A stretch of 64,000 nucleotides of DNA from Minisyncoccota bacterium (lineage in GTDB: Bacteria; Patescibacteriota; Minisyncoccia; Phycocordibacterales; PALSA-1337). Under the pieces are notes generated by a model, which saw nothing but the letters and a program-made list of their open reading frames with translations, did no database searches and was not told the origin of the DNA. The translations under genes and the position numbers were made by a program. Location: contig JAQTPC010000003.1 in the NCBI GenBank assembly GCA_028713005.1, forward strand, positions 13,022-77,021, given 5' to 3'. Positions 25,039 through 37,396 of the stretch are shown here, one piece after another (within the stretch, counting starts at the first letter, position 1; every line of letters begins with the position of its first letter).

Positions 25039-25779
25039 ATGAAAAAACTTAGTCTATTCGAAGCATCTATCATTGGTTTTTTGAGTGGTGTCGTTATCGC
25101 AACCTATTTAATATTTATTACGAGCACGAGTGGTTTTATTGGTAATATCCTTGGATTGATATCGCTCCGTCCACTTCTAGATAAAATCCACTTACCTGAT
25201 AGCCAATTGCTAATTGGGTCATTCATATTTTTTGTACTGGTATACACACTTTATGGGGCACTCATTGGCCTACTCATCCATATCACTAATAAGACAAAAA
25301 TTATCTTATCCCTGCTTGCGGTAGTTATTATTGGAGGCGGTACAGAGCAGATAACTGGAATGATGAGCCACACACCAATTTCAAACGAGATTTATCCTCA
25401 AACTGCTGCAGTCATCAAATCATTTTCAAATGTAACAAAACAGTATTTTGGGACTGAAGCAACTGGGGATCTAAATGCCGATAGACGTGAAGATGTAGCA
25501 TTTTTGATTCATCGTAATGACTCTGACAGGGGCACATTGTATTATCTGGCCGCTGCATTAGATAATGAAAATGGTAAATCTGGTACCAACCTTCTCTTTT
25601 TGGGCAATAACGTATTTCCGACACACATAGCCATAGCAAGTAGTACTATTATTGTCGACTACGCACAATCAAAGAATTCTACAAGTACAAAACAGTTTTA
25701 TGCTCGACTGATAAATGACGCTCTCACGGAAGCACACTCAGCCACTACTCCAACTGCAACGACTACTGATTCTATATAA
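25039..25779 (+). CDS. Hypothetical membrane protein (start trimmed to ATG 25039; upstream part of table ORF overlaps mscL)
   Basis: 246 aa; several TM helices. Confidence 0.45.
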   Translation: MKKLSLFEASIIGFLSGVVIATYLIFITSTSGFIGNILGLISLRPLLDKIHLPDSQLLIGSFIFFVLVYTLYGALIGLLIHITNKTKIILSLLAVVIIGGGTEQITGMMSHTPISNEIYPQTAAVIKSFSNVTKQYFGTEATGDLNADRREDVAFLIHRNDSDRGTLYYLAAALDNENGKSGTNLLFLGNNVFPTHIAIASSTIIVDYAQSKNSTSTKQFYARLINDALTEAHSATTPTATTTDSI

Positions 25780-27595
25780 TTTTCTTTAGTTTCTTTTCTA
25801 TAAACTCATCGATTACATCAATATTTAATTGAAGCTCTTTAAAGATTTTCTCTTCTTTTTTATTGAGTTCACGATCTTCTTTTGCTTTTTCTAATTTTTT
25901 AAGCTGATTACCAAGCTCGTCCTTATAGAGAGATAATGCTTTGTGAATATCATTTACTGTTCCCTGTGTCTCTTTGCGTAATCTTTTTTTGAGGCCAAAG
26001 AACTTGTGCCAACCAAGATACAACATGAGTATGAGACCAATAATGAGTAATGTAGCCGGAATAAGGAATGAAAGTCCATAGATAGCTTGCTTACTGGTAC
26101 GCACAATCAAACCATCTTTAATAAAGACAACCGCCTCATTTGAAATAGGACTTTTTACATCAGTTGCAAACTGGAGCTGAGCTGAAATGCGTGTCTGACC
26201 GACAGTATTCAGTGAATCTGTAGTGACTGAAAGTGACCCATGAGCATCTGTTGTTGTCGTATAACTCTTTTTAGTTCCGTCGCCTGACTGAACGAATATC
26301 TGCATTGGCGTATTTGCATAGCGAGTATCAACAAAGACTGTAACAGCTTCTCCCCTTTGTATCTCTTGGGCAGAAACATGAACCACAGGAACTGCGATTG
26401 ACTGACTGACGAAAGAGGCTTTTGACTCTGTATGGTTGCCAGCTTTATCGTAAGCGACAACTGACAATGTATGGTTACCAGGGTTTTGTATAGGTAGAGT
26501 ATATGCACCATTTACCAACGCATCACTATCAATCCTAATGACCGATCCGGCATCAATCTTGATAAGATGATACTCAATTCCAGACAATGTATCACGCGCA
26601 TTCAACATAACCTCATTTTTCAGACACTCATCGCCAATATGCGCGCCAGCAACGTCTGCCGATGCAATGTTCGCTCCACACTCACCCAAAAAACTAACTG
26701 CAAGTGTTTCTGGTGGAGTTGAGTCGACCTGAATCTTATAATGTGTTATCGGTCCCCAACCAAGACTATTCATGTATCTTACGTGGAAATACATAATGCC
26801 ATCTGACAAATTATTTACTGTACGTTGAGAAACTGAACTATCGTAGGTGACAGTTGGTACATCGGATTTATTTTTACTCAAGAGAGTTTGAACTGATGTA
26901 ACACCCTCAGGTACCGACCAGCTAAATGTCGCCGTTGTACCGGAATACCACGCATTCTGATCCGGATGGGTCGAAGATGTCACGGCTGGTTTTGCTGGAA
27001 CAGAATCAACTAACGAATGAACTGTTGAAATATCTGTCTGAGCGGCCGCACTTACTTGTACTGATACTGGTTGTTGAGCAGTTAACACATTTGTTCCCAG
27101 ACCATCATTGGCACGAACTGCTGCATCAGCAATGAGCACAGATGCTGTGCCAGCTTTTTTTGCTTTGAACACAACCGAGATGATTTCTCCACTTTGTCCG
27201 ATGTATCCAGGATTCGGCAGACCTCCATTAAATGTGATTGTACCTTTCGAATTTGAGAATTGAGGCTCTTCCACCCATAATGAAAAAATTGAAGCACTTT
27301 TATTCACTGATAATACCTCGAGCACATCTGAAGGAAACTGAATGACTCCATCGGCACTATTAACTGCCACACCTGCCGTTGAAACCAGCGCTTTGATCGA
27401 GATGATATTTCCAACTGAGACTTTTGGGTTTACTGGCGAAAAATACAATACAGCTGCCTGCGCTGAAGATGAGACAGATCCAAAAGTACCCCATAGTACC
27501 ACAAGGAAAAAAATCTTCTTTAACAAGGTTTTATTACGCGCTGACTTAGACATTGAGTTTATTCTTTTTCCACTTTTTATACATAAAGCGCACAA
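25772..27595 (-). CDS. Membrane-anchored surface protein with N-terminal cohesin-like domain and C-terminal TM plus coiled-coil tail
   Basis: 607 aa; signal peptide; N-domain paralogous to that of 27546-28442 (VSVG...ADG...EF.L...L...GG.P..G......I..V.F.AKKAG); TM near C-terminus. Confidence 0.55.
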   Translation of the reverse strand: MCALCIKSGKRINSMSKSARNKTLLKKIFFLVVLWGTFGSVSSSAQAAVLYFSPVNPKVSVGNIISIKALVSTAGVAVNSADGVIQFPSDVLEVLSVNKSASIFSLWVEEPQFSNSKGTITFNGGLPNPGYIGQSGEIISVVFKAKKAGTASVLIADAAVRANDGLGTNVLTAQQPVSVQVSAAAQTDISTVHSLVDSVPAKPAVTSSTHPDQNAWYSGTTATFSWSVPEGVTSVQTLLSKNKSDVPTVTYDSSVSQRTVNNLSDGIMYFHVRYMNSLGWGPITHYKIQVDSTPPETLAVSFLGECGANIASADVAGAHIGDECLKNEVMLNARDTLSGIEYHLIKIDAGSVIRIDSDALVNGAYTLPIQNPGNHTLSVVAYDKAGNHTESKASFVSQSIAVPVVHVSAQEIQRGEAVTVFVDTRYANTPMQIFVQSGDGTKKSYTTTTDAHGSLSVTTDSLNTVGQTRISAQLQFATDVKSPISNEAVVFIKDGLIVRTSKQAIYGLSFLIPATLLIIGLILMLYLGWHKFFGLKKRLRKETQGTVNDIHKALSLYKDELGNQLKKLEKAKEDRELNKKEEKIFKELQLNIDVIDEFIEKKLKKII

Positions 27596-28442
27596 TCAAT
27601 ACCACGAGAACAATAATTATGATACCCAACCAGTTAACACCTCTCGACTGGCTTTGATGCAGAGCAATTTTCTTATTTCCTGCTTTATCATATGCAGTCA
27701 CTTGTAACCGTACACTATCACTTTGATCTTTGAGTACGTATGTACTGCCACTACGCACTGCTACCCCACCATTTTCAGACACATCGTAATAATCAATGCC
27801 AGACTGGTTATCGATTGCACTGAAGAAAGCGAATTTTTTACCATCAAATAAAGTTGGTTCCTGACCAAGAACAATCACGAAATCTTCTGGAGGAACAGTA
27901 TCGGCCGTCACAACTCCTGACCAATCATTTTGGATAGCTGTACCCTGCAGTTTTGGTGTTACGGTGATTGTTATGTTTTTAAACTGAACAGGAAGCTTGG
28001 TACCTTTACCATCATTGGCAAATACTGAAATATTCTGAGGATTAATAGTCACAACACCTGCTTTCTTTGCTTCAACAATAATCTTAAATATCGTAGCCCC
28101 TTCTATACTAAAACCACCTGGAACACCACCAACAAATGAAATGGTTTTCAGATCTTTCGAAAGTGATGGCGTACGAGGCCATAGACCAAATGCCGAGTTG
28201 GCCAGACTAAACTCTTGAACAGCAAGATTAAGTGATGACGACTTGAGTGTCACTTCACCATCAACGGTATTCAACACTGATCCGTCTGCATTTATTTTGA
28301 CTGTAACTACCGCCGTATCTCCAACTGAAACAGTACTTCGTGATGCCTCAAGATATACCGTTGCCGCAAATGCATGTAAAGGTACAATCACAAAAACAAC
28401 TGCGATGGCTATTGGGGCGATTATGTTGATGATTTTTTTCAT
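27546..28442 (-). CDS. Membrane-anchored protein with cohesin-like domain
   Basis: 298 aa; signal peptide, cohesin-like beta-sandwich pattern, C-terminal TM and basic tail (KKWKKNKLNV). Confidence 0.55.
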   Translation of the reverse strand: MKKIINIIAPIAIAVVFVIVPLHAFAATVYLEASRSTVSVGDTAVVTVKINADGSVLNTVDGEVTLKSSSLNLAVQEFSLANSAFGLWPRTPSLSKDLKTISFVGGVPGGFSIEGATIFKIIVEAKKAGVVTINPQNISVFANDGKGTKLPVQFKNITITVTPKLQGTAIQNDWSGVVTADTVPPEDFVIVLGQEPTLFDGKKFAFFSAIDNQSGIDYYDVSENGGVAVRSGSTYVLKDQSDSVRLQVTAYDKAGNKKIALHQSQSRGVNWLGIIIIVLVVLIVRFMYKKWKKNKLNV

Positions 28443-28460
28443 ACTATGCTGTGTTAATTA

Positions 28461-31400
28461 TTATTTCTTGCCTAAGTAATATAAGAATATCGAGAAATCC
28501 ACCGAATCCACCTTACCGTCCCCGTTCATGTCGACATACTTATTTTTAAACGGTGGTTTTGATTTCCAATAATACAGAAGGATAGAGAAATCAATCGAAC
28601 TCGGTTTACCGTCACAATTAAAGTCTCCCTTTACACATACTCCTGTCGGAGTTGGTGCGGGACTCGATGGAGCTCCCCCACTTGATCCTCCTCCTGAACT
28701 ACCTCCACCGGTACTACCCGACTCTGCAGTAGCAGTGAATGAACGAGAAGCGACTGAACTATCAGTGCCGAAGTATCCAACCACTTTAAAATAATAATTT
28801 CCTGGATTTGGAACCGTTGCCGTTAGTGTCGTATTAAAATCTTCACCGGGATTTATGTATTTTGCTGCAACTCCATTAAAGACATCATCCCCCCCTCCAC
28901 ATGCATTATTACTATTCGATACAACACACCATTCGTACTGATATTCATTTCCTGTGAGACCTTCATTGGTGAGAGTCACGTTCGCTGAGATACTTGGTAC
29001 GGTGGTATCAGTCATTGAATTTACTATGACCTGAAGTGGTGTAGTGACAACCGTCCAATAATCATTGGCACCGACTGTTTTTCCGCTTTCAACGTTTGCC
29101 GAGAATGTCGTTTCCCATGTTCCTGCAGCGGCATTTGAAGCAGTTGTATATGAATATGTATATGTACCAACTGAGACGCGTGTCATAGCGACATTATTTA
29201 CCACTATATTTCTACTTGGATCATAAATCGTGACAGTTGGCGGATTGAGGGAATCAGTTAAGGTGCCGTCGAATACTGTATGTACCGTTGCAAGATAATT
29301 TCCTCCTGCTACCACTGAACCAAAATCAGAAACTGTTGTTGACCACGATGCAGCCGTTGATGAAGTAAGTGTTCTGACTGTCGCATTCCAGATATCTGCA
29401 GTCAAAGTGCCAAATGAAGTAAGTGTTCGTGTGCTATATGACCAAATCGTTGCGGGTAGTGATATTATCGTTGACGCTAAACTGCTTGAGGCATTGTTTG
29501 TATTTGTATTAATCGAAGTGATTGCATTTGATACTTGAGAGTTTGTATTTGCATTCACACCAACATTCCCTGTTGTTATAACAGCAGCAAGTGAGGTTGA
29601 AGCGTTGAGAACTGTTGCGTTCGTACTACTGTTAATCGCAGTTTGCGTATTAGCGATACTACCTGCTGTTGAAGCAGTACCCGCAGCGATATTTGCGGCG
29701 AGAGTAGTCGACGCACTGACAACGTCAGCAGCTGTAGCTAGACTGCCAGTATCGAGAGTTCCATCTGAGAGACGGCGTGTAGCGTATGTCCAGACATCGG
29801 CTGCAGTGAGCGACCCTCCTCCACTGGTGAGTGTTCGAGTACCGTTATTCCAGACGTCTGCTGCCAATGTACCAAATGTAGTCAATGAACGAGAAGCTGA
29901 TGACCAGACCGCAGTGGCAATTGTTGATGCTAATGATGTTGAAGCAGTGAGAACTGTAGCGTTCGTATTAGTATTGATTGTTGAAATTGCTGAAGATATC
30001 TGACTATTTGTATTCGCATTCACATCAGTTGTAACTTTGGTGATCGAAGTACCGAGTGACGTAGAGGCGCTCAGCACATTTGAGTTCGTTGTTGTTAGAT
30101 TTGTTCCAACGGTAGCCAGTGTTGTACCAATCGAACTCGACGCACTACTCAACTGACTACTAAGCGCAGCAATATCTGACCAAACGATCGTATCAGTCTT
30201 TGTCTTCACGCCGGTGACATCAGACCAGTTGATGGTATCTGTTTTAGTCTTGATTCCAGTAACATCCGCCCACGCAATCGTATCTGTTTTAGCCTTAATT
30301 TGTCCTGATGAAGTAACAAGTCCCGTTACGTCACTCCATGCAATTGAATCAGTCTTTGTTTTGATTGCAGAAATGTTTCCAGTACCAATCTCGGTAATGA
30401 GAGTAGCTACATTGTTTTTAACCGTCGTTACGTCTGTCCAATCAATCGTATCTGACTTTGCTTTAACTGCGAGCACAAGTGCTGACAATGTTGATGAAGC
30501 ACTATTGGTATTTGCATTAATCGAAGAAACAGCAGATGTCACATCAGACTGAACTGCAAGTGAACCAGAACTTAGAGTAGCGCCAGTGAGGGTTCTGGTT
30601 GCACTACCCCAGACATCTGATGCAAGTGTTCCAAAGGTGGTGAGTGATCGTGTACCAGCTGACCACACGGCTGTTGCAACGTCAGACGTCAAAGTTCCGA
30701 AACTGGTAAGTGTTCGTCCAGTAAAATTCCAGATAAGTGATGGTAGCGATGCTGCGAGTGACGTCGAAGCATTTAGGATGGAGCTATTTGTATTTGCATT
30801 CACGCCAGCATTACCTGTGGTAATCGCAGCGGCCAATGAAGTACTCGCAGAAAGAACTGAAGAGTTTGTATTATTGTTAATCACTGTCTGTGCTCCAGTG
30901 ATATTACCTGCAGTAGCAGCAGTGCCCGCACTAACAGCCGAAGCAATCGAACTCGACGCACTGCTCAACTGACTACTGAGTGCAGCAATATCAGTCCAGG
31001 TGATCGTATCAGTCTTGGTCTTGATACCTGTCACGTTAGTCCAATCGATGGTATCTGTCTTGGTTTTGATGCCTGTCACATCAGCCCATGCGATGGTGTC
31101 TGTCTTTGCTTTGATGAGGCCGTTTGAGGTGACGAGACCGGTGACGTCAGACCAGATGATACTGTCTGTCTTTGTTTTAATAGCTGAAATGTTTCCTGTA
31201 CCGATTTCCGTAATGAGGGTAGCTACGTTGTTTTTGACGGTGGTGACATCAGACCAGTTGATTGAGTCTGTTTGTGTTTTGATGGCAAGTACTACCCCAC
31301 CCAAACTGGTTGAGGCAATGTTTGTGTTGCTGTTGATGGCAGTGATAGCTGCGGCGACTTGGACGTTCGTGTTGCTGTTGATACCTGCAATTGAGGTGCC

Positions 31401-32624
31401 GAGAGATGTTGATGCACTGACAACATCAGCAGCAGTAGCTAGACTGCCAGTATCGAGAGTTCCATCTGAAAGACGACGTGTACCATATGTCCATACATCA
31501 GCTGCGGTAAGTGTACCCCCTCCTGAAGTGAGTGTACGGGTGCCATTGTTCCAGATATCAGCCGCTAATGTGCCGAATGTAGTCAATGAACGAGAAGCGG
31601 AAGACCATACTGCAGAAGCAATTGTCGATGCAAGTGACGTTGAGGCATTTAAGACAGTAGCATTTGTATTTGCATTCACACCAGCATTCCCCGCTGTAAC
31701 TGCAGCTGCTAATGAAGTACTCGCAGAAAGTACTGCTGAGTTAGTGTTGCTATTGATTGCAGATTGAGCAGCACTAATATTTCCTGCTGTTGAAACAGTA
31801 CCCGCAGTAATACTTGTAGCAAGAGAAGATGAAGCGTTCGTTACATCAGATTGCGTAGCAAGCGATCCTGATGACAATGTGGCATCAGTTAAGTTACGAG
31901 TACCGTATGTCCATACGTCGGCTGCTGTAAGAGACCCTCCCCCTGAAGTGAGCGTGCGAGTACCATTTGCCCAAATATCAGCTACGAGTGTTCCAAAGGT
32001 GGTGAGTGATCGTGTTGGTGAAGCCCAGACAGCAGCTGGTAATGTTGAATAAAGCGAAGATGATGCGTTATTGATATCTTGCTGTGTAGCAAGTGATCCT
32101 GAAGTCAAACCTGCACCCGTCAGTGTTCGTGTTGAATTGTTCCAGACGTCTGCAACAAGTGTACCTACGGAGGTAAGTGTACGAGTGGCATTATTCCAAA
32201 CTGATGTAGCAAGAGTACTACTTGAAACAACTGTTGCACCGACTGAAAACGTTTTATCCATCTTCACCAAATCCCCTGTTGACACACTTCCACATGTCAT
32301 ACTCGCTGGCCATACACCTTCGGGACCAGAGGATGGTATCGAATAGCTATAGTGCGTCCAACCGTTTGCATCTGCTGTCATGGACGCGGCATTTACCAGT
32401 AATGTGCCACTCGGGTTATAAACAGACAAAACACAACCCGCGGTAGTCGTGGCCACAAAATTGTCATCATACACAAACTCACCGATAACTGCCGTATCCC
32501 CACTTGCATAACGTTCATATGCAGCGTGAACAACAAAAAAACCGTATCCTAATGCGAATGTAAGAAAAAACGCGAATAAAGATACTTTACCTAGCCTATT
32601 GGGTAGTAGTGTACGAACTGGCAT
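28461..32624 (-). CDS. Giant Thr/Ser/Ala-rich tandem-repeat surface protein with C-terminal type-I-like dockerin module
   Basis: 1387 aa; N-terminal TM/signal; ~280-430 aa units repeated about three times; C-terminal double Ca-binding dockerin repeats DFNCDGKPSSIDFSILLYY and DMNGDGKVDSVDFSIFLYY. Confidence 0.7.
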   Translation of the reverse strand: MPVRTLLPNRLGKVSLFAFFLTFALGYGFFVVHAAYERYASGDTAVIGEFVYDDNFVATTTAGCVLSVYNPSGTLLVNAASMTADANGWTHYSYSIPSSGPEGVWPASMTCGSVSTGDLVKMDKTFSVGATVVSSSTLATSVWNNATRTLTSVGTLVADVWNNSTRTLTGAGLTSGSLATQQDINNASSSLYSTLPAAVWASPTRSLTTFGTLVADIWANGTRTLTSGGGSLTAADVWTYGTRNLTDATLSSGSLATQSDVTNASSSLATSITAGTVSTAGNISAAQSAINSNTNSAVLSASTSLAAAVTAGNAGVNANTNATVLNASTSLASTIASAVWSSASRSLTTFGTLAADIWNNGTRTLTSGGGTLTAADVWTYGTRRLSDGTLDTGSLATAADVVSASTSLGTSIAGINSNTNVQVAAAITAINSNTNIASTSLGGVVLAIKTQTDSINWSDVTTVKNNVATLITEIGTGNISAIKTKTDSIIWSDVTGLVTSNGLIKAKTDTIAWADVTGIKTKTDTIDWTNVTGIKTKTDTITWTDIAALSSQLSSASSSIASAVSAGTAATAGNITGAQTVINNNTNSSVLSASTSLAAAITTGNAGVNANTNSSILNASTSLAASLPSLIWNFTGRTLTSFGTLTSDVATAVWSAGTRSLTTFGTLASDVWGSATRTLTGATLSSGSLAVQSDVTSAVSSINANTNSASSTLSALVLAVKAKSDTIDWTDVTTVKNNVATLITEIGTGNISAIKTKTDSIAWSDVTGLVTSSGQIKAKTDTIAWADVTGIKTKTDTINWSDVTGVKTKTDTIVWSDIAALSSQLSSASSSIGTTLATVGTNLTTTNSNVLSASTSLGTSITKVTTDVNANTNSQISSAISTINTNTNATVLTASTSLASTIATAVWSSASRSLTTFGTLAADVWNNGTRTLTSGGGSLTAADVWTYATRRLSDGTLDTGSLATAADVVSASTTLAANIAAGTASTAGSIANTQTAINSSTNATVLNASTSLAAVITTGNVGVNANTNSQVSNAITSINTNTNNASSSLASTIISLPATIWSYSTRTLTSFGTLTADIWNATVRTLTSSTAASWSTTVSDFGSVVAGGNYLATVHTVFDGTLTDSLNPPTVTIYDPSRNIVVNNVAMTRVSVGTYTYSYTTASNAAAGTWETTFSANVESGKTVGANDYWTVVTTPLQVIVNSMTDTTVPSISANVTLTNEGLTGNEYQYEWCVVSNSNNACGGGDDVFNGVAAKYINPGEDFNTTLTATVPNPGNYYFKVVGYFGTDSSVASRSFTATAESGSTGGGSSGGGSSGGAPSSPAPTPTGVCVKGDFNCDGKPSSIDFSILLYYWKSKPPFKNKYVDMNGDGKVDSVDFSIFLYYLGKK
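29450..31800 (-). repeat. Long in-frame tandem DNA repeats within the giant surface-protein gene
   Basis: Near-identical blocks encoding SASTSLAAA[IV]T[AT]GNAGVNANTN..., WSDVTGLVTS[NS]G[LQ]IKAKTDTIAWADVTGIKTKTDTI... recur at ~840-1300 nt spacing. Confidence 0.7.
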
Positions 32625-32647: not shown

Positions 32648-32821
32648 CCGGACTTACAAACATGAACTATGACTTCTTCTTTGTATCCTCAGTAGGATTT
32701 GTCTTGTCGCTAAAACCACCACGAATATGACGAATTGCATCTCCGATGCCGCGTGCAAGTTCAGGAATCTTCTTTGCACCAAAAAGAAGGACGATAATGA
32801 CTGCAATGATGATTATTTCCT
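32648..32821 (-). CDS. tatA: Twin-arginine translocase subunit TatA/E (57 aa; below ORF-table size cut-off)
   Basis: Own translation: MFDIGTKEIIIIAVIIVLLFGAKKIPELARGIGDAIRHIRGG... matches TatA TM plus amphipathic helix. Confidence 0.75.
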
Positions 32822-32832
32822 TTGTTCCAATA

Positions 32833-33552
32833 TCAAACATGTTTTTTAATATTACGATTTATAAAGATTGATCCTTCATATAGAAGTATCAAAGGTAGTG
32901 ACATTACCATCAATGATAAGCCATCAGTTGGTGGAAGTAAAGATACCAATATCACCACAATTACATAGGCGACACGGCGTTTTTCCTTTAAAAAGGTTAC
33001 GTCCATAGCACCTAAGCGCATGAGGATTGTAAGAACGAGTGGCATCTGGAAAATGAAGCCTAAAAGGAGTGCGGTCATGTATGTCTGAGAAACAAATAAG
33101 CCAATATCCCATATATTTTGTAAGCCGATACTCTGCCCAAATACTGAAAGCAAGCTAAACGAGTAATACAAAATGAAAAAAGCATATGCAAAACCCAACA
33201 TAAACAACAATACACTCACTGGCACATACATAAGGAGCTTTCGTTTTTCTTTTTGAGAAAGTGCCTTAGATGAAAAAGCGAAGAAATGATACAACAACAC
33301 AGGAATTGAAATAGAAAATGCACAAAAAAGACCGATGTCCATTGAAAGATTCGCGAGCTGAAATGGTGACGTTGCTGCAACAACAACATTATTCATTTTG
33401 AATATACGCAACAACAATCTCAGGATCGGACCAGAACATGAAAAGCCGACGAAAAACGTTACCGCAAAAATAATCGTAGTTTTATACAGGCGTATTCGTA
33501 TATCTTCGAGGTACGGAGTGAATTTCGAGACAAGTTCTTTGATACGTTCCAT
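32833..33552 (-). CDS. tatC: Twin-arginine translocase subunit TatC
   Basis: 239 aa; 6-TM TatC architecture, N-terminal MERIKELVSKFTPYLEDIRIRL. Confidence 0.85.
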   Translation of the reverse strand: MERIKELVSKFTPYLEDIRIRLYKTTIIFAVTFFVGFSCSGPILRLLLRIFKMNNVVVAATSPFQLANLSMDIGLFCAFSISIPVLLYHFFAFSSKALSQKEKRKLLMYVPVSVLLFMLGFAYAFFILYYSFSLLSVFGQSIGLQNIWDIGLFVSQTYMTALLLGFIFQMPLVLTILMRLGAMDVTFLKEKRRVAYVIVVILVSLLPPTDGLSLMVMSLPLILLYEGSIFINRNIKKHV

Positions 33553-33759: not shown

Positions 33760-34587
33760 TTATAAACCTAGTTTTCTGCCGATTTGTTTCTTTGCAAATG
33801 CAATCACTGGATTTTTACTTGAAAGCGCCTGAACACCATCATTCAATATTTCTGGTGTTGTTGTTGATGCGTCAGTATTGATAACAGGAACAGTGCTTGA
33901 TGCGGTATCGATAACATCTTGTGTTGATGATGACACGACAGGGTCAACTATTACGTCAGGTGTCGTTGAACTGGTATCAGTATCGAGATCAGGAACATCA
34001 AGGGTCGTGGTTGCATTAGTTGATGTTGCAGTATCATTTGGAATATCAAATGCAGGTGTCGTTGTTGAAAATGGTGATGTTGAGGTAGAGACTGATGTAT
34101 CGACATTTGTTGCAGGAGTTGTGGTTGAAAAAGTACTTTGAGGAGTAGATGTGGCAGTGTTTGTATCGATAACATTCTCAGTTGGTGTAACCTGCTGAGG
34201 AACAACAACCTTTTGTTCTACAGGAACATCAACTTGATCTTTCCTCAACTCCCTCTTTCCAGGACCACCGCGTCTTTTTATAACTCTACCGACAAATTTT
34301 GCTGCAGGCTTTTTGCCATCCATCAACTTTCTATTATTAATCACTTCATCATGTGGCACATTCGCAAGAAGTGCGGCAACCTGATCTTCAGTTAATTCTT
34401 CTGTTTGACCATATATCGGACCACCAAATACAACATACTGTGCTTGATACATGCATGTCGGAATATTTGGGTCTGCGCCCTCAACATAACATTCGATGAG
34501 GTCGGTCTCATTGTAATCCCCTGTTGGTACAGCGGCACGAATCTTTGAATCATCCTTGAGTTGTTGATCTTGTTCGATGTGTATCAT
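33760..34587 (-). CDS. Hypothetical protein with Thr/Ser-rich C-terminal half
   Basis: 275 aa; low-complexity T/S/P region typical of O-glycosylated or surface linkers. Confidence 0.45.
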   Translation of the reverse strand: MIHIEQDQQLKDDSKIRAAVPTGDYNETDLIECYVEGADPNIPTCMYQAQYVVFGGPIYGQTEELTEDQVAALLANVPHDEVINNRKLMDGKKPAAKFVGRVIKRRGGPGKRELRKDQVDVPVEQKVVVPQQVTPTENVIDTNTATSTPQSTFSTTTPATNVDTSVSTSTSPFSTTTPAFDIPNDTATSTNATTTLDVPDLDTDTSSTTPDVIVDPVVSSSTQDVIDTASSTVPVINTDASTTTPEILNDGVQALSSKNPVIAFAKKQIGRKLGL

Positions 34588-34591
34588 GGGA

Positions 34592-36745
34592 TTAATTTTG
34601 TGTTAACAATGCACGAACTTTTATATTGTCACCGAGTGTTGTTGGTGTGTAACGAATATAGGTCGTCTCATTTGCCTTATCAGATGTATCGTACGCACCA
34701 TATGAACTACCGTCATTTGTTGATTTTGTCCACGTGCCAGATGCTGACGATGTAGTTGTATCATCGAGCAACAATCCTCCGGTAACCGCATTATAAAGAC
34801 GTATACGCATGGTTGGTACCGTACCACCAAAAGCAGTCGAGAATCTCCATGCGAAGTATTTACTTGCTGCACTCGATTGGGTCACTGATGGTTGGTAGTG
34901 GGAGTCAGTACCCAAATCTTCATAAATGACACCTGTAGCACAAATTCTTGCTGGCAGACCAAGTGTTCCAATCGTACGAAACTCTATCATCAACTGTATA
35001 CTTGTTGAACCATCAATTGAAGCTGTTCCTGTACTATCGAGCAATGTCCACGAGCCCGAATCATCCGTTATACCTGCGGTACGGTAATACATACGATATG
35101 GTTCTGTATTGAGACCAAGATTTTTACCTGTTGCACCACCAACAACCTGTACTTCTTGAGTGAAAAATTGAGTAAATTTTGAAACTTCTGGCGTAGATAT
35201 AGCTGGTAGAACTAGGCGCGAATCAGTGATTGATGCATATTCCCAATCAGCACTCAATGGCAAAGCATACAAGCGGTTTGTCGATGATGTTGTACCCATA
35301 GTTGCAACATAACAAAGCCCCCCTTCTGACCAGATCGAATACGCACCACCTGTCTGAGATGCAATCGGCGTTGATGTGGCATCAGCGTTTGAAAGATCAA
35401 GCTGAAACGTGTTAACTCCCCATATTCTATCAAGTTGACCCGCATCAGTACGAAACTGTGTTACGTAGTTACGTTGCGTAGCACCCGTGGCAATTATAAA
35501 TTTATCGATTGCCGCCGCAAATTCAATTGAACCCATAGCACCTGAAGCAGCAAATGTATTGACACCCCCTGGTGGAACTTCAGTCATGACATATCCTGAT
35601 GATAACCATGTTGTTGAACCGCTTGTAATATTTGATGTAAGCGCTGCATACACACGTGAAGCAGTCGTAAAATACAATGCTTCTTGACCAGAATATGGAC
35701 CGTGATTAGTAGTTGCCATACGTCCATTATTTAACTGTGTTGGAGCACCAGTGATAACACCACCTGAACCTGTCTTATACTGTATACCGTTTGCAGTATC
35801 TTTTCCGGCAGTGAGTGTAAGTGCGGCGCGTATGTTGTATTTGAACACAACTGGGTTTGCGAGTGTATCGAGCACGTACACCATATGTGAAGTCGGACTT
35901 GTTCGTGTCGACACAGCAAGACCGAAACTAACGGTGTTAGTAACTGTCGATGCATCGGCGAGCCAATAACATGCACGAATATTATCAACCGTTGTAGCAG
36001 CCGGGACTGTACCACCAACGTTTGAGAATGCATTGAAATTCAGTCCTTTGACTACATACAAACCACCGTTTGTTGCTGTGGCATTTGTCGTTGCCATAAT
36101 GCAACGCAAATCTTCTATGACATATGCGGTACCACCGGCAATTGTTCCGGCGGTAGTAGTAAGAGTAATTGAGGTATCAGAACCAATAGCAGATATTTCA
36201 TACCATGTCGTTATTTGTGTTGGATCTGTCGAACCAAAACCGATACGATTACCTACACAGACTTTATTTGTACTAAACAACGTACTTGTTCCCGACACAG
36301 CTGTACCAGAAACTGAAACTGTTCCAGTAATTTCCAAATCATATGCCATACGAAAACCACGAATGGTATACGCGGTGGCAGTCGGAAATGTGACTGTTAC
36401 AAAACCTTGCCAATTCCACACTGCACTCCTGCGATTAAATGTATATGCATTGATACGACGAGTTGCGGCTGCGGTAGAAAGGTCAGCAAGAAATATCCAG
36501 TCCAACTCCCCTGCTGCGTTGTTTTGCCACTGCATAGCCCACGGAAACTGAGAAGCAATGGTTGTTGTCTGCTCCATTGGACGAGCAACTGTTGTTGGAA
36601 CTGGGCCTGCATAACCCGCTTCACCTGAACCAGACTGTTGATATATCAAGTTTCCAAGACCAAGCTTGGTCGAATCATACGAATCAACACCATATCTATA
36701 TGTTGATTGTGAACCCAATCGTTGTATTACTGCTCGTGTTGCCAT
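34592..36745 (-). CDS. Large hypothetical Thr/Ser/Gly/Ala-rich protein (possible surface-layer or structural protein), no signal peptide
   Basis: 717 aa continuous ORF; beta-rich composition. Confidence 0.5.
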   Translation of the reverse strand: MATRAVIQRLGSQSTYRYGVDSYDSTKLGLGNLIYQQSGSGEAGYAGPVPTTVARPMEQTTTIASQFPWAMQWQNNAAGELDWIFLADLSTAAATRRINAYTFNRRSAVWNWQGFVTVTFPTATAYTIRGFRMAYDLEITGTVSVSGTAVSGTSTLFSTNKVCVGNRIGFGSTDPTQITTWYEISAIGSDTSITLTTTAGTIAGGTAYVIEDLRCIMATTNATATNGGLYVVKGLNFNAFSNVGGTVPAATTVDNIRACYWLADASTVTNTVSFGLAVSTRTSPTSHMVYVLDTLANPVVFKYNIRAALTLTAGKDTANGIQYKTGSGGVITGAPTQLNNGRMATTNHGPYSGQEALYFTTASRVYAALTSNITSGSTTWLSSGYVMTEVPPGGVNTFAASGAMGSIEFAAAIDKFIIATGATQRNYVTQFRTDAGQLDRIWGVNTFQLDLSNADATSTPIASQTGGAYSIWSEGGLCYVATMGTTSSTNRLYALPLSADWEYASITDSRLVLPAISTPEVSKFTQFFTQEVQVVGGATGKNLGLNTEPYRMYYRTAGITDDSGSWTLLDSTGTASIDGSTSIQLMIEFRTIGTLGLPARICATGVIYEDLGTDSHYQPSVTQSSAASKYFAWRFSTAFGGTVPTMRIRLYNAVTGGLLLDDTTTSSASGTWTKSTNDGSSYGAYDTSDKANETTYIRYTPTTLGDNIKVRALLTQN

Positions 36746-36754
36746 ATATGATGA

Positions 36755-37396
36755 TTAGACTTCCAAATAATCGATGTTAATTTGCACTGTAGTAGTACCC
36801 GATATAACACAGTATAACACCTCGTCGATACCACCCTCAATATAATTTGGGTGATTGTTTGCACCATACAGTCCACCAGCCTTTGGTGACACATATTTTT
36901 CATGATCTGTTCCTCCACTCGTAAATCTGAAGGATACTGATGCAGCATCTGCTGTCAACGAGAAACGTGAAGCGTACACACGAATCTTCTTTCCTGAAGC
37001 CGGAGTTCTTACAGTACCTGATGCGGAAAGTGAGATAGTGAGTTTTGTAACACCTTGACCTGCAATAAGAGACGAGAGCGTATCTTCAGTAGCAGGATTT
37101 ATGCGAGTATTACTTGAATTTTTGACACCCACAACACTTGAAGAAGGTGTACTACCCATCACCAAAGCCTCTGATTTCTTTGGGAGAATCTGCGATGCTA
37201 CAAGTCCGGCACCAGCAATGCCCAAGGCTTTGAGAAATACTCTTTTATTATCATCCGTGACTGCCGAAGCCTGATTTGTGTTATTTTTTGCAGAAGAAAA
37301 AGTGCCCTGTTTATGTTCAACAGACGTTTGCGTCTTTTCTATGGTTTCATTTTGAATGAATCGAAAAGAATGTTTGTTAGCAAGCATAAAAAGCAA
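36755..37396 (-). CDS. Hypothetical exported protein with twin-arginine-like (KR variant) signal: DNKRVFLKALGIAGAGLVASQILP
   Basis: 213 aa; S/T-K-R-x-F-L-K motif followed by h-region and SEA-type cleavage region; located in same minus-strand block as tatAC. Confidence 0.5.
   Translation of the reverse strand: MLFMLANKHSFRFIQNETIEKTQTSVEHKQGTFSSAKNNTNQASAVTDDNKRVFLKALGIAGAGLVASQILPKKSEALVMGSTPSSSVVGVKNSSNTRINPATEDTLSSLIAGQGVTKLTISLSASGTVRTPASGKKIRVYASRFSLTADAASVSFRFTSGGTDHEKYVSPKAGGLYGANNHPNYIEGGIDEVLYCVISGTTTVQINIDYLEV

Follow-up and report, generated by a model that had tools for sequence, protein, structure and literature searches.

Several systems are known in which a single cohesin holds a dockerin-bearing protein, and they serve as points of comparison for the locus described here, a run of three genes on the minus strand (positions 25772-32624) of a 64,000-nucleotide stretch, hereafter the window, from the genome of a Minisyncoccota bacterium (assembly GCA_028713005.1, contig JAQTPC010000003.1), which encodes a giant fibre protein with a C-terminal dockerin and two membrane-anchored, cohesin-like proteins, coh298 (the short anchor) and coh593 (the long anchor). 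In Ruminococcus flavefaciens, the single surface cohesin of ScaE takes up the C-terminal dockerin of an elongated non-enzymatic protein (ScaB or CttA), and CttA is reportedly a cellulose-binding partner of ScaE. These partners form type III pairs with an X-module, and ScaE is bound covalently to peptidoglycan by the sortase/LPXTG route (PMC12484212), attachment via SLH modules or sortase/LPXTG being the defining feature of the anchoring scaffoldin of a cellulosome (PMC12484212). OlpA and OlpC of Clostridium thermocellum (3ul4, 4dh2) are cell-bound proteins with one type I cohesin each, which directly binds type I dockerins; they are attached by SLH modules and have cellulosomal enzymes as clients. 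A non-cellulosomal context with the order cohesin followed by FN3 or immunoglobulin-like (Ig) domains is found in Clostridium perfringens modules (GH84C 2w1n; 2jh2; 2vo8), which reportedly assemble enzyme complexes and are borne by secreted toxins or glycoside hydrolases. The cohesin of the archaeon Archaeoglobus fulgidus (2xdh) likewise represents the fold outside cellulose degradation. Within Patescibacteria, the Saccharibacterium Southlakia epibionticum has an envelope protein with a dockerin domain, SEML1_0315, which was found to be essential and for which a role in host adhesion or glycan targeting was suggested (Wang et al. 2023, PMC10633639).

Compared with these systems, the locus is likely a non-cellulosomal, type-I-like cohesin-dockerin surface-display module with transmembrane anchors, conserved in Paceibacteria (Patescibacteria/Candidate Phyla Radiation, CPR). 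By analogy, it would work like the anchoring end of a cellulosome, with ScaE, OlpA and OlpC as the closest analogues, and the same tethering of an elongated protein as at ScaE is predicted here; in fold and context, C. perfringens with its non-cellulosomal cohesin-FN3 modules comes closest. The locus does not encode a cellulosome, as no carbohydrate-active enzyme (CAZyme) cargo, multi-cohesin scaffoldin, carbohydrate-binding module (CBM), SLH or sortase anchoring was found. Family scans of the fibre gave MG2-like/Ig-like domains and repeats and no CAZyme domain, neither anchor matches a CBM, an SLH module or LPXTG, each anchor has one cohesin only, and both end in a transmembrane helix and a cytoplasmic tail. 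ScaE differs in its sortase/LPXTG linkage as opposed to a C-terminal transmembrane helix, and in its type III pairs with an X-module as opposed to a symmetric type-I-like dockerin behind a flexible linker, whereas OlpA and OlpC differ by SLH attachment and enzyme clients from transmembrane anchors in a CPR host without CAZymes. In C. perfringens the modules belong to secreted hydrolases or toxins, while here dedicated membrane anchors face a repeat-fibre cargo, and the A. fulgidus cohesin has no adjacent dedicated fibre gene. SEML1_0315, compared by its description only, belongs to another class (Saccharibacteria), and neither a cohesin partner nor a gene triad is described for it. A literature search, which did not cover all journals, returned no paper describing this triad. 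New features are the type I membrane protein anchor, the pair of a short and a long anchor with a conserved cytoplasmic domain in one of them, the dedicated fibre client of variable length and the CPR host.

The three open reading frames (ORFs) are consecutive on the minus strand in the ORF listing of the window and comprise the fibre gene (28461-32624, 1387 aa), coh298 (27546-28442, 298 aa) and coh593 (25772-27553, 593 aa). The initial annotation had let the last of these start at a TTG at 27595, giving 607 aa; the ATG at 27553, which is used in the NCBI annotation and supported by all orthologues, is the more likely start. With this start, coh593 overlaps the coh298 stop by 8 nt, and coh298 follows the fibre gene after a gap of 18 nt in the same reading frame. 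The sequence parting these two (28443-28463, minus strand) consists only of TAA TAA and five codons. Promoter and terminator scans gave no more matches than shuffled sequence did. The 64-kb window has a single dockerin-type double F-hand and two cohesin-like domains, and both anchors are deposited as hypothetical proteins in the source record, a metagenome-assembled genome labelled Candidatus Pacebacteria/Paceibacterota (locus tags PHG25_01330 and PHG25_01335).

The fibre protein ends, as had been proposed in the initial annotation, with a duplicated F-hand dockerin of type-I-like character (aa 1328-1387, 28464-28643), in which Pfam Dockerin_1 (PF00404) is matched at aa 1332-1380 with 37.9 bits against a gathering cutoff of 22.9, and the same model is matched above this cutoff in two orthologous giant fibres (27.4 and 31.9 bits). 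The first F-hand comprises aa 1334-1352 (DFNCDGKPSSIDFSILLYY) and the second aa 1365-1383 (DMNGDGKVDSVDFSIFLYY). In a pattern scan using one genome per species, the spacing of the Ca-coordinating residues was found to be kept in both F-hands in 35-36 of the 36 genomes, with D, N, D, N/D and D at positions 1, 3, 5, 9 and 12 (D-x-N-x-D-x-x-x-N/D-x-x-D); the first loop of the window protein has a Ser at position 9. The helix following each loop, S-[IV]-D-F-S-I-L-L-Y, is near-identical between the two segments, whose mean identity to each other is 64% over the 36 genomes. Because of these near-identical helices, dual binding, or the use of either cohesin, is to be expected, such F-hand symmetry being the basis of the dual-binding mode in characterised dockerins (PMC12484212). 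Two Cys, one some 8-10 residues ahead of the first loop and the other at loop position 4, co-vary: 28 genomes have the pair, 6 lack both, and in 2 the second Cys is moved to loop position 6. This co-variation suggests that the corresponding pair in the window protein, C1329/C1337, forms a disulfide staple. Between the dockerin and the Ig-like domain before it lies a flexible Gly/Ser/Pro linker of 27 residues (aa 1301-1327, 28644-28724), with poly-Gly/Ser at the equivalent place in fibre orthologues, and hence an X-module arrangement of the type II/III kind does not apply.

The N-terminal domains of the two anchors are paralogous, as the initial annotation had held, with 31% identity over 163 aa (E = 8e-15). 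Their assignment as cohesins is drawn from the predicted fold and from orthologues, since the window sequences themselves give no match to the family hidden Markov model (HMM). AlphaFold2 models obtained on family alignments reach a predicted local distance difference test (pLDDT) of 87.7 for full-length coh298 and of 90.8 for aa 1-300 of coh593, and in both a nine-stranded β-sandwich (jelly-roll) superimposable on solved cohesins is predicted. When compared with the PDB using Foldseek, both models retrieved almost solely cohesin modules as top matches, which disposes of the concern that these domains might fold as unrelated Ig-like domains. The best match for both is the C. perfringens GH84C cohesin-FN3 tandem 2w1n (E = 1.9e-11 for coh298 and 6.6e-12 for coh593), followed by type I cohesins of C. 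cellulolyticum, C. acetobutylicum, C. thermocellum OlpA/OlpC and A. cellulolyticus at target template-modelling scores (TM-scores) of 0.66-0.82; type II and type III cohesins and the archaeal cohesin of A. fulgidus were matched as well. In the case of coh298, 2vo8 is matched at a target TM-score of 0.82 and 2xdh at 0.77, along with many cohesins of types I, II and III, and in the case of coh593, type I cohesins are matched at 0.70-0.76, those of OlpA/OlpC at 0.72-0.74, and the ScaE cohesin (2zf9) is among the matches. Moreover, PF00963 is matched by 7 of 56 full-length coh593 orthologues when scanned singly (best E = 6.1e-9), and a few orthologues are named cohesin domain-containing protein by NCBI. 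Residues conserved across both paralogue families are N58 in β3, L87, W88 and P92 in β5, G105, G106 and G110 in β6, and D144, G145, G147 and T148 in the β8-β9 loop. The 8-3-6-5 sheet is reportedly the dockerin-binding face of type I cohesins, and the distribution of the conserved residues would fit such a shared ligand-binding face, a reading that is no more than suggestive, as Gly and Pro account for many of these residues.

Each anchor has a Sec-type signal with an AxA site, one cohesin and a single C-terminal transmembrane helix, and the signal peptides and C-terminal membrane anchors that had been predicted for these two downstream genes of the same strand were thus recovered. In coh298 (27546-28442), a signal peptide (aa 1-26, AFA-cut-A) is followed by the cohesin (aa 27-165, 27948-28364), an Ig-like domain (aa ~185-262, 27657-27890; sub-threshold OmpL47-type/Big_13 matches) and a transmembrane helix (aa 268-288, 27579-27641) with a basic tail of 10 aa; family identity within CPR amounts to 57-70%. 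In coh593 (25772-27553), the signal peptide (aa 1-33, AQA-cut-A) and the cohesin (aa 34-170, 27044-27454) precede an FN3-like domain (aa ~188-285), Ig-like repeats (aa ~286-480), which resemble the Lap biofilm adhesin 6xi3 (E = 2.8e-11, the only PDB profile match for coh593), the transmembrane helix (aa 491-515, 26009-26083) and a charged, helical cytoplasmic tail (aa 516-593, about 78 aa, 25775-26008). A basic cytoplasmic tail had been described for both proteins, and this description fits coh298 but not coh593, whose tail ranks with the best-conserved stretches of the protein (GWHKFFGLKKK ... LNKKEEKIFKELQ.NID.ID.FIEKKLKK). This tail is probably a coiled coil and has no family match. A TatA-like nature of the coh593 transmembrane helix and tail was considered, as an orthologue (P0125) is named TatA by JGI; this label is treated as spurious, since TatA_B_E is matched neither by the window protein nor in the family scan.

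The cargo is, in agreement with the initial annotation, a Thr/Ser-rich repeat protein (T 17%, S 14%, A 12%) and not an enzyme. It begins with a Sec-type signal peptide (aa 1-34, ...FFVVHA-cut-AYERY, 32523-32624), and the AxA site and the subsequent mature N-terminus, AYERYAxGDTAVIGEFVYDD..., are conserved in 18 fibre orthologues. The export of the fibre by the twin-arginine translocation (Tat) pathway, considered due to the adjacent tatCA genes, was rejected because the twin arginine is missing from the signal peptide of the window protein and from those of the 18 orthologues. The sole hydrophobic segment is located at aa 14-32, within this signal peptide, and hence the mature fibre has no membrane anchor of its own and needs a partner to remain on the cell. 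The tip is an MG2-like β-sandwich (aa 35-139, 32208-32522) with 40-77% identity across loci, in which two cysteines, C30 and C77 in domain numbering, are invariant in the family; PF01835 (MG2) is matched by 16 of 27 family members (best E = 8.1e-8), and a search of the PDB with the tip-domain profile gave no significant match. The base consists of two conserved Ig/MG2-like domains (aa 1096-1300, 28725-29339) with 55-75% identity, which are present in 38 of 39 loci, with Pfam MG2 matched at aa 1127-1177 (36.6 bits, cutoff 32.8). A phage origin was rejected, as no PHROG match was obtained for the fibre, coh298 or coh593.

Tip and base are connected by a stalk of variable length, which in the window protein spans 956 residues (aa 140-1095, 29340-32207) and is a mosaic of the motifs VWxxxTRxLT (16 copies), KTKTDxIxW (7 copies with a 15-residue period) and NxNTN (10 copies). 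It is rich in T, S, A and N (T+S 35%), has few Pro and no Cys at all, and exhibits a hydrophobic period of about 3.7 residues overall and of 7.2 in the 15-residue KTKTDxIxW repeats, whereas the NxNTN regions show a β-like period of 2.2. From these periodicities we infer that the stalk may be helical, possibly as a non-heptad coiled coil. Together with repeats of some 15 and some 19 residues, this periodicity resembles that of non-heptad (right-handed) coiled-coil fibres, and the NxNTN-rich parts look β-like. Across loci, the length of the fibre varies while tip and base are kept, full-length members ranging from about 331 aa without any stalk to more than 1100 aa, with 1387 aa in the window and 1923 aa in locus L002. 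Recent DNA duplication was rejected as the source of this variation, as the internal repeats of the fibre gene are only 63-81% identical and hence old.

The co-occurrence of the three genes in related genomes is strict. The pattern scan yielded 36 loci, and a complete Campbellbacteria genome and two metagenome contigs were obtained in addition from context look-ups. The 36 loci carry the labels Paceibacterota, Paceibacteria, Taylorbacteria, Adlerbacteria and Parcubacteria, besides many metagenome-assembled genomes auto-labelled Saccharibacteria. The order tatC, tatA, dockerin fibre, coh298, coh593 is seen again in 36 Paceibacteria genomes at species level and in two further contigs. Upstream sequence is available for 35 loci, and in every one of them the ORF that immediately precedes the coh298 homologue carries the same dockerin at its C-terminus; coh593 follows coh298 in 38 of 39 loci, the exception being a contig end, so that the triad expected from the initial annotation recurs throughout; exactly one dockerin ORF is found per ±10-kb locus. 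Many contigs start inside the fibre gene or have it split (L006, L008, L010, L013, L014, L016, L018 and others), as in L016 (271 + 851 aa) and L018 (266 + 617 aa). The repeat stalk evidently breaks or corrupts assemblies, and the fibre family is therefore under-represented in protein databases; the 1387-aa sequence of the window is missing from a 15-billion-protein collection in which both of its neighbours are present.

A mechanism can be proposed in which the fibre takes the Sec route of export and loses its signal peptide at the conserved AxA site, leaving a mature form without a membrane anchor. Its C-terminal dockerin, probably disulfide-stapled, would fold around two Ca2+ ions and plug in a Ca2+-dependent manner into the membrane-distal cohesin of one or both of the neighbouring type I membrane proteins. 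The anchors would hold their cohesins off the membrane on Ig/FN3 stalks at two heights, the short one with a cohesin and one Ig domain, the long one with a cohesin, FN3 and Ig repeats and the conserved helical tail reaching into the cytoplasm. Exposed on the surface in this way, the fibre would project outward as an adhesin or a spacer, with the MG2-like tip distal and presumably ligand-binding and with the lineage-variable stalk setting its reach. Paceibacteria (Parcubacteria), which rank with the most abundant of the uncultured bacteria, presumably live in attachment to other cells. For their little-known surface attachment machinery the locus provides a concrete candidate, made of three genes that are conserved together and whose products share a predictable protein-protein joint, which can be expressed and assayed in vitro without cultivation. 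For the cohesin-dockerin field, it would extend the module to a type I membrane anchor, a dedicated non-enzymatic fibre client and a minimal-genome, non-cellulolytic host, and the conserved, symmetric and apparently disulfide-stapled dockerin could serve as an orthogonal coupling pair in protein engineering.

Some observations weigh against the display of this fibre by these anchors. Pfam Cohesin (PF00963) is matched by neither coh298 nor coh593 at E <= 1, cohesin is not among the families top-listed for 42 members of the coh298 family, and searches of PDB sequences with single sequences and with profiles of both anchors retrieved no cohesin. The cohesin-like residue pattern noted in the initial annotation thus found no counterpart at the HMM level in either window protein. 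Furthermore, many non-cellulosomal dockerins are not known to have a cohesin partner. A word-indexed search with the dockerin only had returned 7 contig-end fragments, all with PF00404, and was replaced by an exhaustive profile search, which gave 770 representative clusters (E <= 1e-10). Of the 149 best representatives, 71 have the Ig base in common with this fibre and 43 of these the tip as well, and 78 share nothing with it. This dockerin subtype therefore occurs on other cargo too, and the cohesins may serve several ligands. It is possible, though less likely than not, that the anchors act as a general docking platform for several dockerin proteins encoded elsewhere in the genome, with the adjacent fibre as one client and possibly not the main one. 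The size of the dockerin family and its 78 unlike members agree with such a platform, as do about 28 further representatives of the top 149 that share only the Ig base and carry different N-terminal cargo, e.g., FN3-like repeats, and two cohesin heights could suit different clients. However, the profile matches carry no genome context that would link other dockerin proteins to genomes with these anchors, and always a single dockerin ORF is found within ±10 kb, as in the whole window. A docking platform is plausible, and it would be more an extension of the display of the neighbouring fibre than a contradiction of it.

Upstream of the fibre gene, the triad adjoins genes for Tat components and further envelope candidates. 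tatC (32833-33552, minus strand; PF00902 TatC 128.3 bits) is the first gene of the conserved run of five and lies directly upstream of the fibre gene region in 16 related loci. It is followed by tatA (32667-32840, minus strand; 57 aa, MFDIGTKEIIIIAVIIVLLFGAKKIPELARGIG...; TIGR01411 tatAE 56.5 bits, cutoff 53.9), which overlaps with the stop of tatC and terminates 42 nt short of the fibre start, and which was unlisted at first because the ORF listing took only ORFs of at least 80 aa; locus L001 has one or two TatA genes at the equivalent position. Together with p213, p717 and p275, these genes and the triad constitute an eight-gene block, p213, p717, p275, tatC, tatA, fibre, coh298, coh593, which is syntenic in many loci, whereas this conservation does not extend to the genes further downstream (MscL and others). 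p213 (36755-37396, minus strand; 213 aa) and its orthologues (L001, L004, L007, L015, L022) share a conserved signal of Tat-like type, KR-x-F-L-K, in which Lys-Arg replaces Arg-Arg (..NKRVFLKALGIAGAG..AEA), and judging from this signal p213 is likely a substrate of the adjacent TatAC.

The conserved block, with tatC-tatA directly upstream of the fibre gene, the Tat-like signal of p213 orthologues and the high conservation of the coh593 tail, invites the view that the fibre, the anchors, TatAC, p213, p717 and p275 form one larger envelope apparatus, in which the cohesin-dockerin pair would be just one joint and the coh593 tail would link to cytoplasmic partners or cluster the anchors. This view is possible but unlikely: the fibre and both anchors have signals of the Sec type and not of the Tat type, p213, p717 and p275 have no family assignment except for a weak tail-fibre match of p717, and synteny alone does not show physical association. 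A bolder proposal, improbable when taken as a whole, is that of a Paceibacteria-specific attachment organelle with an oligomeric, non-heptad coiled-coil stalk, in which several symmetric dockerins would bridge both anchors into a multivalent base, the coiled-coil tail of coh593 would couple occupancy or load to the cytoplasm, and TatAC, p213 and p717 would supply further folded extracellular parts; if true, the variable stalk length would tune reach to the host cell surface. It is very unlikely that dockerin and cohesins do not bind each other at all. On this reading, the dockerin would serve in Ca2+-dependent stabilisation or in glycan binding, the anchors would be envelope proteins of an unrelated Ig type, and their linkage would be a matter of shared envelope regulation. 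In its favour, both window anchors have no direct cohesin HMM support, and 30 of the 42 members of the coh298 family give weak, sub-threshold matches to BatD/DUF11-like β-sandwich models. However, the structural matches are specific to cohesins and not to generic Ig or DUF11 folds, a strict 1:2 linkage with tight translational coupling in about 36 species would be difficult to account for if the proteins did not interact, and the fibre would be left with no way to attach to the cell.

As regards the remaining genes of the block, p717, p213 and p275 gave no Pfam, NCBIfam or PDB assignment. p717 (34592-36745, minus strand; 717 aa) is without a signal peptide and has a weak match to a phage tail-fibre PHROG (E = 7.7e-5). 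It is adjoined by p275 (33760-34587, minus strand; 275 aa), which is Thr/Ser-rich, and orthologues at the position of p275 show faint Glucosaminidase matches.

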